Positions 4,571-35,966 of a DNA stretch of 64,000 nt are shown here, one piece after another. The notes under the pieces are model-generated. The model was given only the letters and a program-made list of their open reading frames with translations, had not been told where the DNA came from and did not search any database. A program made the translations under genes and the position numbers. The first letter of the stretch is position 1, and each line of letters starts with the position of its first letter. The DNA comes from Escherichia coli (GTDB lineage: Bacteria; Pseudomonadota; Gammaproteobacteria; Enterobacterales; Enterobacteriaceae), in NCBI RefSeq assembly GCF_003991155.1, contig NZ_CP031293.1; one strand, 5' to 3'.

Positions 4571-4732
4571 ATGTCACTGGAAAATGCCCCTGACGATGTC
4601 AAACTGGCTGTCGATTTGATTGTGCTGCTGGAAGAAAATCAGATCCCAGCCCGCACCGTGCTGCGCGCGCTGGATATTGTAAAACGCGATTATGAAAAGA
4701 AATTAACGCGCGATGATGAGGCGGAAAAGTGA
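4571..4732 (+). CDS. ybaM: Small protein YbaM (DUF2496), 53 aa
   Basis: ATG at 4571 to TGA at 4730-4732, immediately downstream of priC. Below the 60-aa cutoff of the ORF track; called from position and reading the frame by eye. Confidence 0.7.
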
Positions 4733-4785
4733 GAAATAAATGGGGCCGCTAAATGTCCCCTAAGATTGTGGGCAAACGCAAAACT

Positions 4786-4884
4786 GCCTGATGCGCTACG
4801 CTTATCAGGCCTACACCGCTCCTGCAATACATTGAATTCTTGCGGTTTCGTAGGCCGGATAAGGCGGTCACGCCGCATCCGGCA
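4786..4884. repeat. REP (repetitive extragenic palindromic) cluster, two units
   Basis: GCCTGATGCGCTACGCTTATCAGGCCTAC (4786-4814) and GTAGGCCGGATAAGGCGGTCACGCCGCATCCGGCA (4850-4884) in the ybaM-mscK convergent intergenic region. Confidence 0.85.
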
Positions 4885-4943
4885 TGAACAACGCGCACTT
4901 TGTCAGTAATCTCGGGGCAACTAAATGTCGCCCCCTTTGGTTA

Positions 4944-7900
4944 TTACCCTACCGCTGGCGTCGGGTCATCGCCTTTGTAGTCGCGTTTGACTTCCGTCAC
5001 CTCATCGCCCTTCTCGTTGTGCAGATGCACTTCAAGCTGGTTAAAGGCAATGTTGATGTCGTTTTCACGGCACAGCTGATCGATAGTACGGTTCAGCTCA
5101 TCGACAGTACGACTACGGTCACGCAGTTCACGCACATACAGACGCAGCTCATGATCCAACGTGCTGGCACCAAATGCCGTAAAGAAGACTTCCGGCATTG
5201 GTTCGTGCATCACCCTTGGGTGCTCAGTCGCCGCCTTCAGTAACACTTTACGCACTTTTTCCAGATCGGAGCCATAGGCCACGCCGAGACGGATCACCAG
5301 ACGCGTAGTAGTGTCAGTCAACGACCAGTTGATCAGACGCTCGGTAACAAACGCTTTGTTCGGGATGATCACTTCTTTGCGATCGAAATCGGTAATCGTT
5401 GTCGCACGAATACGGATCTTACTTACCGTCCCCGAGAAGCTACCAATGGTTACCGTATCACCAATACGCACCGGACGTTCGAACAGGATGATCAAACCAG
5501 AGACAAAGTTACCGAAGATCTCCTGTAAGCCAAAACCAAGACCTACGGATAATGCTGCCGCCAGCCACTGGAGTTTATCCCACGAGACGCCCAGCGATCC
5601 GAACACCGTCATCGCACCAACGGCAATAATGATGTAGTTAAGGATGGTAGTAATGGCATACGACGCGCCCTGACGCATATTCAGTCGCGAGAGCACCAGC
5701 ACTTCCAGTAAACCAGGCAGGTTGCGAATCAACGCCCAGGCCACCATTGAGGCGATAATCGCAAACAACAGACTGCCCATGGTGACGTTTTTCACCACCG
5801 CAGCGCCAGCTTCAGTGCCGTTGTAATGCCAGAGCGTGATGCTGTCGAGATAGCTGAACACGGTGATCAAATCGGACCAAATTGCCCAGAACATGACACC
5901 GAACAGCGCAAACATCAGCAACATGGTAATACGCAGCGTCTGCTGGTTAACCTGTTCCAGTGCAATGGTGGGTTCTTCCGGCGGTTCGGCACCTTCTGCG
6001 CCCTCTTTCACCAGATTCTGCCGACGCGCCAGCGCACGACGCCAGGCGATACGCCGCGCCGCTACGCTTAAGCCGCGCAATACCGTCTGGTACAGCAGGT
6101 TCCAGATGATCACCAAATAAACGGTTTCAATCCAACGCCCGGAGAGGCGCAGCGTGGTGTAGAAATAACCCGTGGCGGTCAGCACCATCAACGCAATCGG
6201 GATAATCGACAGTACGGTAATGGTGACCAGTCGCATGGTGTGCGACTCTTTATCACGCCAGCTTTCGCGGCACATCGGCCACACCAGGAAGGCAATCAGC
6301 AGCAAGTTGAAGAAAATCATCGCCTGCCCCAGCACATCATCCATCAGATGCAGCGGGGAAAGTTCTGCCACCACAGACCAGAAATGGATAGGCAGCAACG
6401 CGAGACTGATGCGGACAATTTGCCGACGCCAGTGGCTGGTCTGCTGTTCCGGCATGCCGAAGTGACGCACGGCAACGCCGTTTTTCTCCAGTACCTTCCA
6501 GCACAGGCCAAACACCAGCCAGAAAATCGCCAGTTTTTTGCTGAACGACCATAGCAGTTCGCTGATGTTGAGCTGCATGGTCAACAGAATCAGGCCAACC
6601 GCGAGAATAATCAGGCACACCGGCAGCGCACGGATCAGGTCGATAAGGATCGCTTTTGGTGTGTTGAGCTGGCTGTCGTTACGCAGGGAACCCACAGCGG
6701 AAGCCAGTTTTTGTTGATACGCTTTCAGCCAGCCCAGACGCCAGTGGATCAGCCCGGCAATCAACAGCAGCGGCAAACCAGCGAGGAAAGCGATAAAAAC
6801 GGCAGGCCAGGCTTTTTCCCAGTTCACCGTGATTTTCATCGACTTAAATTCATCTCTCAGGCTTTGCGGGAACGCTTTGATCCAGTCCCAGTCCATTGGA
6901 CGGTTACTGTTCACCCAAAAGATTTGCTGAGTCAGGATGGATTTCAGGTTTTTCGACACACTCATTAACTGCTGCTGGTTGATTTGCAGGTTAATGGCCA
7001 TCATCAATTGGTTACCCAACTGTTTGTTAAGCTGATCCAGCAATTCGCGACGCATATCAACTACTTGCAATAACGCATCGTGAACTTCGCTGTTAACTTC
7101 GTTGGCATGACCTTCCTCCAGCTTGTTAACGAATGCATCGCTCTGGAAGAGTGCGTCACGCTGCTGGTTGACTTCAAACTGTTCGAGACGCAAATCCGCG
7201 ATACGGTTGGTCATGTTTTCCAGTTCATCCGCCGAGGGCAGCGTTTGTTGTTGCTGGTAAAGGATACGAGACAACAGCAGGCTGCCTTTCAGGACAGAAA
7301 TCTGCTCTTTGATATTACGTTCCGATTGCAGCGCCCGCTCAAGCCAGTTTTTAACTTTGATGTTTTGCTGCATCAGCTGATTACCGTTTTCGGTAGCGGT
7401 AATCAAACGCTGACTCAACTGCTGGTTTATTTCCAGCTCCTGCTTCACCAGCGGATTAGCCTGAATACGCGCGGCTTCATCCGGGGAGACGGCTTCCTGC
7501 GCCGTTTTTTCGGTTAAAGTCAGACGCTTGCTGTTTACTGCTTCTTGCAACAGCTGCAACTGGTGCTCCAGACGGGCGCTGTTCGCCGTCACGTAATCCC
7601 GTTGCTTTTGCAAGGTATCCTGCAAGACGGTGTTCCCTTCCAGGCTTTTACGCTGCTGGTCAATCTCGGCATTCAGCAAAGCCTGCTGAGCCTGCATTAA
7701 CACTTTCTGGCTGGGACGTAAGGCAGTCTCGCCGACATCAGTCCCGTCCAGACGACTGCGAATTTGTTGCAGCTGCTGCGAAGCGTTATACATCGCATTT
7801 TGCACACGTTCGGGCTGCGTCTGTAACGAAACCAGCTGGCTGTTATAAGACGCCAGATCGTTTTGTGCGTTTTGCAAATCGTCCAGCGCCTGGGCAACGC

Positions 7901-8433: not shown

Positions 8434-9081
8434 TTATTCGTTAGTGGCAGGATTACGAAGCGTGGGGCACAGGAGATACATCTCCAGTAAGATGGCGACG
8501 TAATCGCGGGCTTCTTTTTTAAGATCAAAAGATTGCGGGGCAAAGAGCCAGTTTTCCATCAGGCCGGAAATATAGCCGCGCATAATAATTGCTGCGCGAC
8601 GCGTCATTAAATCCGCAGGCAACATTTTCGCTTCAATACAATGTTTTAACGTTTGTTCTATACGGTCATAACTTTCCAGACAGAGATTACGTTGTGCCTG
8701 TTGCACAACAGCCATTTCTCCGACAAATTCGCATTTGTGGAATATAATCTCCATCAATAATCGACGCCGTTCTTCTGTCACCGTGGATTCAAGAACATGA
8801 ATTAATATCTCTCTTAATACTGAGAGTGGATCGCCAGGGAATTTTGCCTGATACTCAAGCTCTAGTTCACCAATATTGGATTCTGACAGTTCCCAGATCT
8901 CACTGAACAAATCCGACTTGTCTTTAAAATGCCAGTAGATTGCACCGCGCGTAACGCCAGCTGCTTTTGCAATCTCACCCAGCGAGGTGGATGATACCCC
9001 CTGCTGTGAGAAAAGACGTAGAGCCACATCGAGGATGTGTTGGCGCGTTTCTTGCGCTTCTTGTTTGGTTTTTCGTGCCAT
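8434..9081 (-). CDS. acrR: TetR-family repressor AcrR
   Basis: 215-aa [62 protein letters not shown] (TetR HTH); divergent from acrA. Confidence 0.95.
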
Positions 9082-9109
9082 ATGTTCGTGAATTTACAGG
9101 CGTTAGATT

Positions 9110-9133
9110 TACATACATTTGTGAATGTATGTA
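9110..9133. promoter_or_regulatory. AcrR operator, 24-bp palindrome in the acrR-acrA divergent promoter region
   Basis: Sequence TACATACATTTGTGAATGTATGTA read directly; perfect 10-bp arms around TGTG. The known AcrR binding site lies at this position. Confidence 0.85.
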
Positions 9134-9222
9134 CCATAGCACGACGATAATATAAACGCAGCAATGGGTTTATTAACTTTTGACCATTGACCAATTTGAA
9201 ATCGGACACTCGAGGTTTACAT

Positions 9223-10416
9223 ATGAACAAAAACAGAGGGTTTACGCCTCTGGCGGTCGTTCTGATGCTCTCAGGCAGCTTAGCCCTAACAGGATGTGAC
9301 GACAAACAGGCCCAACAAGGTGGCCAGCAGATGCCCGCCGTTGGCGTAGTAACAGTCAAAACTGAACCTCTGCAGATCACAACCGAGCTTCCGGGTCGCA
9401 CCAGTGCCTACCGGATCGCAGAAGTTCGTCCTCAAGTTAGCGGGATTATCCTGAAGCGTAATTTCAAAGAAGGTAGCGACATCGAAGCAGGTGTCTCTCT
9501 CTATCAGATTGATCCTGCGACCTATCAGGCGGCATACGACAGTGCGAAAGGTGATCTGGCGAAAGCCCAGGCTGCAGCCAATATCGCGCAATTGACGGTG
9601 AATCGTTATCAGAAATTGCTCGGTACTCAGTACATCAGTAAGCAAGAGTACGATCAGGCTCTGGCTGATGCGCAACAGGCGAATGCTGCGGTCACTGCGG
9701 CGAAAGCTGCCGTTGAAACTGCGCGGATCAATCTGGCTTACACCAAAGTCACCTCTCCGATTAGCGGTCGCATTGGTAAGTCGAACGTGACAGAAGGCGC
9801 ATTGGTACAGAACGGTCAGGCGACTGCGCTGGCAACCGTGCAGCAACTTGATCCGATCTACGTTGATGTGACCCAGTCCAGCAACGACTTCCTGCGCCTG
9901 AAACAGGAACTGGCAAATGGCACGCTGAAACAAGAGAACGGCAAAGCCAAAGTGTCGCTGATCACCAGTGACGGCATTAAGTTCCCGCAGGACGGTACGC
10001 TGGAATTCTCTGACGTTACCGTTGATCAGACCACCGGGTCTATCACCCTACGCGCTATCTTCCCGAACCCGGATCACACTCTGCTGCCGGGTATGTTCGT
10101 ACGTGCACGTCTGGAAGAAGGGCTTAATCCAAACGCTATTTTAGTCCCGCAACAGGGCGTAACCCGTACGCCGCGTGGCGATGCCACCGTACTGGTGGTT
10201 GGCGCGGATGACAAAGTGGAAACCCGTCCGATCGTTGCAAGCCAGGCTATCGGCGATAAGTGGCTGGTGACAGAAGGTCTGAAAGCAGGCGATCGCGTAG
10301 TAATAAGTGGGCTGCAGAAAGTGCGTCCTGGTGTCCAGGTAAAAGCACAAGAAGTTACCGCTGATAATAACCAGCAAGCCGCAAGCGGTGCTCAGCCTGA
10401 ACAGTCCAAGTCTTAA
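9223..10416 (+). CDS. acrA: Multidrug efflux periplasmic adaptor AcrA
   Basis: ORF 9187..10416; canonical start MNKNRGFTPLAVVLMLSGSLALTGC (lipobox) at ATG 9223. Confidence 0.95.
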   Translation: MNKNRGFTPLAVVLMLSGSLALTGCDDKQAQQGGQQMPAVGVVTVKTEPLQITTELPGRTSAYRIAEVRPQVSGIILKRNFKEGSDIEAGVSLYQIDPATYQAAYDSAKGDLAKAQAAANIAQLTVNRYQKLLGTQYISKQEYDQALADAQQANAAVTAAKAAVETARINLAYTKVTSPISGRIGKSNVTEGALVQNGQATALATVQQLDPIYVDVTQSSNDFLRLKQELANGTLKQENGKAKVSLITSDGIKFPQDGTLEFSDVTVDQTTGSITLRAIFPNPDHTLLPGMFVRARLEEGLNPNAILVPQQGVTRTPRGDATVLVVGADDKVETRPIVASQAIGDKWLVTEGLKAGDRVVISGLQKVRPGVQVKAQEVTADNNQQAASGAQPEQSKS

Positions 10417-10435: not shown

Positions 10436-13588
<3,153 letters not shown>

Positions 13589-30440: not shown

Positions 30441-30493
30441 AGCGCAATAACCTTACGTTGTTTTTATAAAAACTGTTATAAGTACAGAGGTCA

Positions 30494-32939
<2,446 letters not shown>

Positions 32940-33611: not shown

Positions 33612-35966
33612 CTATTTTGCAGTCACAACCTGCATGCCAGACGGTTCATTTTGCAGCGCCAGAGTCAGAACTTCCTCAATGCGTTTCACAGGATGAATAT
33701 CCAGATCGGCAATTACGTTGTCAGGAATCTCTTCCAGATCGCGTTTATTTTCGAACGGAATTAACACTGTTTTAATCCCGCCGCGATGCGCTGCCAGTAG
33801 TTTTTCTTTCAAACCACCGATAGGCAGTACCTGACCACGCAGAGTGATCTCACCGGTCATTGCCACATCGGCACGAACCGGGTTACCGGTCAGGCAAGAA
33901 ACCAGCGCGGTGCACATAGCAATACCGGCACTCGGACCATCTTTCGGCGTCGCACCTTCCGGTACGTGGACGTGGATGTCGCGTTTTTCATAAAAATCAG
34001 GGTTGATCCCCAGTTTTTCCGCACGCGCACGAACCACCGTTAACGCCGCCTGAATGGACTCCTGCATCACTTCGCCAAGCGATCCGGTATAGGTCAGTTT
34101 GCCTTTACCCGGAACGCACGCGGTTTCAATGGTCAGCAAGTCACCGCCCACTTCCGTCCACGCCAGACCAGTTACCTGACCGACACGGTTTTCGTTATCC
34201 GCGCGACCATAGTCGAAACGCTGAACACCGAGATAGTCATGCAGGTTATCGCCGTTAATTTCGATATGTTTTAATGACTTATCGAGCAGTAACTGCTTAA
34301 CCGCTTTGCGACACAGTTTGGAGATTTCACGCTCCAGACCACGCACGCCCGCCTCACGGGTGTAGTAACGAATAATGCCGATAATGGCGCTATCGTCGAC
34401 GGTCAGCTCACCTTTTTTCAGTGCATTACGTTCAATCTGCTTCGGCAGCAGGTGACGTTTGGCGATGTTCAGTTTTTCATCTTCGGTATAACCGGAGAGG
34501 CGAATCACTTCCATACGATCCAGCAGCGGTGCCGGAATGTTCATGGAGTTCGACGTCGCGACAAACATCACGTCGCTAAGGTCGTAATCCACTTCCAGGT
34601 AGTGGTCGCTGAACGCTACGTTCTGCTCTGGATCCAGCACTTCAAGCAGTGCGGAAGCCGGATCGCCTCGCATGTCAGAAGACATTTTGTCGATCTCATC
34701 GAGCAGGAACAGCGGGTTTTTCACGCCCACTTTCGCCATTTTCTGGATCAGTTTACCCGGCATAGAACCGATGTAAGTACGGCGGTGACCACGGATTTCC
34801 GCTTCATCACGCACGCCGCCCAGCGCCATACGGACATATTTACGCCCGGTGGCTTTGGCGATGGACTGCCCCAGGGACGTTTTACCTACCCCCGGTGGCC
34901 CTACCAGGCAGAGGATCGGTCCCTTGATTTTGTTGACACGGCTTTGAACCGCAAGATACTCAAGGATGCGATCTTTCACGCGCTCCAGACCATAATGGTC
35001 GGTATCAAGGATTTCCTGCGCCTGACGCAGGTCTTTTTTGACCTTGCTACGCGCATTCCACGGTACCTGTACCATCCAGTCGATATAACCACGCACTACG
35101 GTCGCTTCTGCCGACATCGGAGACATCATTTTCAGCTTCTGCAACTCTGCTTCCGCTTTCTCTTTTGCCTCTTTCGGCATTTTCGCCGCGTCGATTTTGC
35201 GCTTCAGGGCTTCGTTTTCGTCCGGCGCGTCGTCCATTTCACCGAGTTCTTTCTGAATAGCTTTCATTTGCTCGTTCAGATAGTACTCACGCTGGGATTT
35301 CTCCATCTGCTTTTTAACACGGTTGCGAATGCGTTTCTCAACCTGCAGCAGATCGATTTCCGATTCCATCATTGCCATCAGATATTCCAGACGTTCGTTA
35401 ACGTCGGACATCTCCAGAACGGACTGTTTGTCAGCCAGTTTCAGCGGCATATGTGCAGCAATGGTATCCGCCAGACGCGCCGGATCGTCGATGCTATTCA
35501 GCGACGTCAGCACTTCTGGTGGAATTTTTTTGTTCAGCTTGATGTAGCCTTCGAACTGGCTGATTGCAGTACGCACCAGCACTTCCTGTTCCCGCTCATC
35601 AATGGTCGGCGACTCCAGATACTCCGCCTTCGCAGAAAAGTGTTCGCCATTGTCAGAGAGCGCAGAAATACGCGCGCGCTGTAACCCCTCGACCAGCACT
35701 TTGACGGTGCCGTCAGGCAGTTTCAGCATCTGCAATATAGAGGCCACGGTCCCGACGGTGAAAAGATCGTTTACACCCGGCTCATCCGTTGAAGCTTCTT
35801 TCTGCGCGACCAGCATAATTTTTTTATCATGGTCCATCGCCGCTTCCAGACAACGGATAGATTTTTCCCGCCCGACAAATAAGGGGATGACCATGTGCGG
35901 ATAAACCACCACATCGCGCAGCGGCAATACGGGGATTTCAATGCGTTCAGAACGCTCAGGATTCAT
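33612..35966 (-). CDS. lon: ATP-dependent protease Lon
   Basis: ORF 33612..36011; canonical start [37 protein letters not shown] at 35964-35966 (784 aa); Walker [10 protein letters not shown]; catalytic S in PKDGPSAG. Confidence 0.96.

Follow-up and report, generated by a model that had tools for sequence, protein, structure and literature searches.

The locus described here lies within a window of 64 kb (the whole stretch of 64,000 nucleotides that was analysed) from an Escherichia coli genome, and it comprises the operon for AcrAB, the principal multidrug efflux pump of E. coli, together with the gene for its local repressor. The acrR gene is read from the minus strand and diverges from acrA and acrB, both of which are read from the plus strand. 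The interval highlighted by the first-pass annotation, 9082-9222, coincides precisely with the 141 bp that separate the start codon of acrR (9079-9081, CAT on the plus strand) from the acrA ATG (9223-9225). The genes and the features found within and beside this gap are as follows.

8434-9081, minus strand: acrR coding sequence, 215 aa, TetR-family local repressor of acrAB (from the ORF, K-12 comparison, profiles and PDB)
9063-9081, minus strand: putative marbox (MarA/SoxS/Rob activator site) ATGGCACGAAAAACCAAAC, spanning acrR codons 1-7 (19/19 match to AYNGCACNNWNNRYYAAAY)
9082-9222, no strand: acrR-acrA intergenic region, 141 bp (141/141 identical to K-12 MG1655)
9108-9113, plus strand: candidate acrAB -35 hexamer TTTACA (sigma-70 consensus scan; 80% to >95% conserved in 84 Enterobacterales sequences)
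9110-9133, no strand: predicted AcrR (and EnvR/AcrS) operator, with arms at 9110-9119 and 9124-9133 and spacer TGTG at 9120-9123 (exact match to the published site)
9132-9137, plus strand: candidate acrAB -10 hexamer TACCAT, with 2 nt in common with the right operator arm (consensus scan; at least 80-95% conserved)
9144-9222, plus strand: probable acrA mRNA leader of about 79 nt (conserved blocks 9157-9171 and 9184-9216; start inferred)
9162-9189, plus strand: conserved leader inverted repeat, CAATGG (9162-9167) and CCATTG (9184-9189) (Enterobacterales alignment)
9223-10416, plus strand: acrA, periplasmic adaptor, 397 aa (one amino acid difference from K-12)
10439-13588, plus strand: acrB, RND transporter, 1049 aa (no amino acid differences from K-12)

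Comparison with the K-12 reference, MG1655 (NC_000913.3), was made gene by gene; the window corresponds to K-12 positions 432,909-494,841 in reverse orientation. The intergenic region shows no differences from that between b0464 and b0463 (485,620-485,760), and the operator and marbox are likewise identical base for base. Within the genes, acrR has two synonymous differences (C105T and T585C) and no amino acid changes, acrB has 29 synonymous differences and encodes an identical protein, and acrA has 11 nucleotide changes that result in a single amino acid change, T104A (codon 9532-9534), the sole one across acrRAB. The differences in these three genes spare every regulatory element. Alanine is the commonest residue at position 104 of AcrA across species (61 of 105), and is also present in E. 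albertii and in other E. coli; by residue frequency, T104A is a natural polymorphism, with the threonine of K-12 representing the minority state. An alignment of acrR and the operator to K-12 had been suggested as a check in the first-pass annotation. It revealed no change in the operator, only the two silent differences in acrR, and no substitution at a functional residue of either.

The operator sequence, TACATACATTTGTGAATGTATGTA, occurs once in the 64-kb window, and a search allowing up to 3 mismatches located no further matches in it. In 100 dinucleotide-preserving shuffles there were no matches, even with 3 mismatches. The site consists of two perfectly complementary arms of 10 nt, separated by a 4-nt spacer that is not palindromic. 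Thus, the earlier description of an intact 24-bp palindrome holds with respect to its integrity, and the term palindrome is better replaced by a 10-4-10 inverted repeat. The same 24-bp string is given as the AcrR site in PMC9769551 and PMC10597343, both citing Su et al. 2007. The latter describes two 10-bp inverted repeats that are 4 bp apart, and proposes that AcrR binds the 24 bp as two dimers, probably a dimer of dimers (PMC10597343). AcrR shares this palindrome with EnvR, which binds it as well (PMC9780535), and electrophoretic mobility shift (EMSA) data have been published on this exact site (PMC9769551, PMC10597343, PMC9780535). The segment 9110-9133 is the predicted AcrR operator in its wild-type form.

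Hexamers of the acrAB promoter were assigned by a consensus scan for sigma-70 sites on the acrA strand, combined with their conservation, and the candidate -35 and -10 sequences are separated by a spacer of 18 nt. The operator fills the space between them and overlaps both hexamers, an arrangement to be expected if repression works by occluding the promoter. From the position of the -10 sequence, transcription of acrAB would start at approximately 9144, in agreement with what we take to be the annotated start in K-12. A candidate promoter for acrR (-35 TTAATA at 9176-9171, with TATATT or TATTAT) was considered and rejected, its -35 sequence lying where conservation across the region is lowest.

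The putative marbox is the only sequence in 64 kb that matches the consensus AYNGCACNNWNNRYYAAAY at 19 of 19 positions, and any perfect match was produced by just 3 of 100 shuffles. When up to 2 mismatches were allowed, the window contained 13 matches compared with 16 expected, a comparison that is uninformative and leaves only the perfect match as meaningful. The marbox occupies the 19 nt to the left of the highlighted 9082-9222, covering the first seven codons of acrR, start codon included. It reads on the strand opposite to acrAB and ends 26 nt upstream of the -35 hexamer, a spacing that is conserved. In this respect, an alignment of 84 distinct Enterobacterales control regions shows that the stretch from the marbox towards the -35 hexamer (9082-9096) is poorly conserved in sequence and fixed in length. 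Furthermore, conservation across Enterobacterales at the third positions of acrR codons 2-6 is 90% or higher, as opposed to 20-70% for codons 7-15. This pattern fits a constraint at the level of DNA, imposed by the marbox in addition to that of the encoded protein, and constraints on translation initiation could contribute to it.

A role for this sequence has support in the literature on K-12. PMC11642870 places a marbox within the first ~20 nt of acrR, and activation through it by MarA, SoxS and Rob is reported for the identical K-12 sequence in PMC11642870 and PMC11633057. Full up-regulation of acrAB needs inactivation of AcrR plus retention of the marbox, and the effect of an acrR deletion depends on whether the marbox is lost or kept (PMC11642870). 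The control region is wider than the interval first highlighted, extending from about 9063 to 9222 and including acrR codons 1-7. Because the marbox sits there, annotation checks should span this whole region, including the first seven codons of acrR.

Local repression of acrAB by AcrR had been considered possible in the first-pass annotation, and the exact operator and the K-12-identical repressor bear this out. The annotation also predicted that efflux would not be derepressed by loss of acrR. This stands for the local route; the genes behind the global routes (marR, soxR, rob and others) are located beyond the window. The sequence supports the view that there is no acrR-loss genotype here, and nothing in the control region would predict raised efflux. 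An alternative is that the locus is wild-type and AcrAB is, nevertheless, overexpressed through changes elsewhere, such as mutations in marR, soxR or rob, loss of Lon, or other activators. With its marbox intact and perfectly consensus, the promoter should remain fully responsive to MarA, SoxS and Rob, which have been described as the main drivers of up-regulation (PMC11642870, PMC8277102). The genes marR, soxR and rob are absent from the window. Lon degrades MarA and SoxS, and its loss stabilizes both of them. The relevant gene inside the window is lon (33612-35966); its protein is identical to that of K-12 and its upstream region aligns without insertion. Nothing within the window points to up-regulation, and we consider overexpression by such routes to be unlikely in this strain.

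The reading of 9110-9133 as an AcrR operator can be judged further from its recurrence across species. When one genome from each species was scanned for TACATACATT-N4-AATGTATGTA, with exact arms required, at least 120 loci were identified; given this requirement, the scan shows recurrence of the site in context, not the rate at which sites are lost. At even base composition, a 20-base exact palindromic pattern is expected by calculation approximately 0.3 times in 298 Gb. In 115 of the 120 matches listed, and hence in at least 115 species, the site adjoins an AcrR homologue (35-99% identity), which is almost always divergent from an AcrA homologue. The spacer of the operator varies between species, and includes TGTG, TATG, CGCG, CTTG, CATG and others. 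Among the 93 Enterobacterales in the list, the site lies 28 nt from the acrR ATG in 61 and 27-29 nt from it in 90.

The repressors adjoining these sites have diverged unevenly. In distant homologues from Aeromonas, Comamonadaceae and Oxalobacteraceae, the first 65 residues are 62% identical and the helix-turn-helix (HTH) is 74% identical, compared with 27% in the ligand domain. Conservation of the DNA-binding domain in these distant homologues explains the persistence of the operator arms. Arms identical at 20 of 20 bases are also seen beside AcrR-like TetR genes of 35-43% identity in Aeromonas, several Betaproteobacteria and one member of the Bacteroidota. Examples among loci L004-L123 are L017 (Aeromonas, 5138-5161), L004 (Acidovorax, 4674-4697) and L081 (Fulvivirga, 896-919).

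These observations bear on the suggestion that no protein binds the inverted repeat, which would have arisen by chance or would simply be a structural feature of AT-rich intergenic DNA. The operator arms are indeed AT-rich (16 of 20 bases), and occasional chance matches occur: two of the 120 listed are in Firmicutes of 26-29% GC that have no TetR neighbour, and may be of this kind. However, the shuffled sequences yielded no match, at least 120 matches were found where a fraction of one was expected, 115 of those listed have an AcrR homologue as neighbour at a constant spacing, and EMSA data exist for the exact site. This conservation of context effectively refutes an origin by chance, which we regard as exceedingly improbable, and assignment of the site as an AcrR operator is retained.

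The repressor itself is encoded by an uninterrupted ORF with no frameshift, stop or insertion, so that the full-length, 215-aa acrR gene noted at the outset is upheld. The protein is identical at 215 of 215 residues both to that of K-12 and to the crystallized protein (PDB 2QOP/3BCG). It scores 419.3 bits with the NCBIfam equivalog for AcrR, NF007949, for which the cut-off is 271. The next NCBIfam models fall below their cut-offs (EnvR, 179/274; MtrR, 167/280). Within the protein, Pfam identifies a TetR_N domain (PF00440) at residues 16-62 (E 1e-19), and a TetR_C_2 domain (PF08361), which is a ligand domain of the MAATS type, at residues 84-202 (E 2e-53). Binding of the operator and release by ligand are known for K-12 AcrR, the identical protein (PMC9769551, PMC8277102), and substrates of the pump free AcrR from DNA (PMC8277102, PMC11642870).

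A full-length acrR gene is, on its own, no proof of function because missense alleles such as L34Q act as nulls (PMC11642870). The proposal that this gene encodes a repressor made defective by a missense change in the HTH or ligand pocket draws on such alleles, but it is refuted at the sequence level by the absence of any amino acid difference from K-12 AcrR and the crystallized protein, and its probability is negligible. Known resistance substitutions such as R45C are moot since the protein has no substitutions. Among related proteins, AcrR of Salmonella (PDB 3LHQ) is a close, non-identical homologue. The TetR-type efflux repressors TtgR, MtrR and NalD belong to the same fold family, provide the next-best PDB matches (E 1e-44 to 1e-29), and share a layout in which the repressor is divergent from an RND pump operon and the operator lies over the pump promoter. 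However, they are distinct proteins with their own operators, and the AcrR described here falls short of the equivalog cut-offs for EnvR and MtrR.

Within the species, variation in the control region is rare. Of 5423 complete E. coli genomes, 5421 carry the 221 bp at 9040-9260 with an identity of 99% or more, and an intact operator is thus overwhelmingly the normal state in E. coli. One rare variant, in strain B-DolR (L124, NZ_CP117044.1), has C9101T, located between the marbox and the -35 hexamer. This strain is a dolutegravir-resistant laboratory derivative of E. coli B. In the other, a chicken isolate designated Z1323CEC0008 (L125, NZ_CP148461.1, 1405-2501), an element of the IS481 family is inserted at ~9103-9108 and separates acrR and the marbox from the -35 hexamer and the operator. 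Over 25 kb, many sequenced strains match the window with 100% identity, and two of the closest relatives, W4 and UID2309220009, do so too except for an IS1 in acrR. These IS-disrupted alleles (IS1 in acrR, IS481-family in the intergenic region) occur at the same locus and in the same lineage, whereas no such insertion is seen in the control region or acrR here. A wild-type acrR gene and operator constitute a useful negative in resistance genotyping. They exclude the commonest local route to AcrAB overexpression, which involves acrR frameshifts, IS insertions and operator lesions, and lesions of these types occur in close relatives.

We hold with high confidence that the locus is the canonical divergent acrR/acrAB control region of E. 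coli in its wild-type form, and no observation speaks against this reading. Identity, conservation and context come from the comparisons described above, and the roles of binding, occlusion, ligand release and activation are taken from the literature. This acrR-acrAB switch is already known and its presence here adds no new biology. AcrR would bind the 10-4-10 repeat at 9110-9133 and keep RNA polymerase off the acrAB promoter. Such a block should follow because the site fills the space between the -35 and -10 sequences, and AcrR should also limit transcription of acrR because the site separates acrR from any acrR promoter to its right. We infer both the occlusion of the -35 and -10 sequences and the control by AcrR of its own gene from this site. 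Among the pump substrates, rhodamine 6G, ethidium and proflavine would bind the C-terminal domain, leading AcrR to leave the DNA, and the paralogue EnvR/AcrS may use the same operator. Activation by stress would be separate, with MarA, SoxS or Rob acting at the marbox at 9063-9081, which lies at a fixed 27-29 nt from the operator. Control after transcription may operate through the conserved acrA leader, which carries a CsrA-type TCGGA motif beside the ribosome-binding site.

The predicted leader has two highly conserved blocks, 9157-9171 and 9184-9216, which flank a variable stretch at 9172-9183. The second block contains the highly conserved TCGGAC (9202-9207) and the Shine-Dalgarno sequence GAGG (9212-9215). 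In the acrAB leader of Salmonella, CsrA binds AAGGA and TCGGA and raises production of AcrAB (PMC5727465). The acrR-acrAB locus of Salmonella enterica likewise has a 141-bp intergenic region, a 24-bp AcrR/EnvR palindrome and TCGGA in the leader (PMC9780535, PMC5727465). However, the primary CsrA site of Salmonella, AAGGA, has no counterpart in this E. coli leader, where only TCGGA is present.

The two conserved blocks also contribute one arm each to the inverted repeat CAATGG/CCATTG. Among 72 distinct leaders from Enterobacterales, its pairs are retained in 65-72, and only 2 leaders have a double compensatory change. In most genera of Enterobacterales the repeat extends to CAATGGGT...ATCCATTG, with a G.U pair, and its loop varies freely in sequence and in length. 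Since the pairs are almost invariant, covariation cannot separate an RNA hairpin from a DNA site or from coincidence. RNAalifold analysis of the 72 distinct leaders did not predict the CAATGG/CCATTG stem, yielding no more than short helices at TCGG/CGAG and near the start codon. Folding of the single sequence 9144-9240, starting from the predicted leader start, gave -13.2 kcal/mol with z = -0.86, which is no different from shuffles. An Rfam scan of 8800-9500 on both strands, with E up to 1, identified no RNA family, and the sequence string of the repeat was not found in the literature searched. A tentative proposal, to which we assign a low probability, is that the repeat at 9162-9189 might be an undescribed cis-regulatory element of the pump operon, acting either as a hairpin in the mRNA, with an effect on its stability or translation, or as a protein-binding site. 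If true, this element would add a layer of regulation beyond AcrR, the marbox and CsrA. A second inverted repeat, ATAAACGCA/TGGGTTTAT, is present at 9152-9173, where arms of 9 nt with 89% complementarity start approximately 8 nt into the predicted leader. It corresponds to the first hairpin of the single-sequence fold, the whole of which is no better than shuffles.

Several other differences from K-12 were observed across the window. One is an insertion of 2.3 kb between cyoE and yajR (48083-50357), carried by 1372 of the 5426 complete E. coli genomes compared. It contains a gene for a TacA-like DUF1778 antitoxin (48158-48535) that overlaps a gene resembling a GNAT acetyltransferase toxin (48519-49061), together with a Sel1-repeat protein (49404-50021, minus strand) and a 93-aa ORF. 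Small changes affect intergenic regions: about 126 bp of the K-12 yajO-dxs region are absent from the window (at ~58759), and the gap between fadM and ybaV has 12 extra bp relative to K-12 (window ~30441-30545). Between ybaM and mscK, a segment of 130 bp (4774-4903) is 82% similar to a distant intergenic segment of K-12 (430,956-431,085), making it a probable dispersed repeat element.
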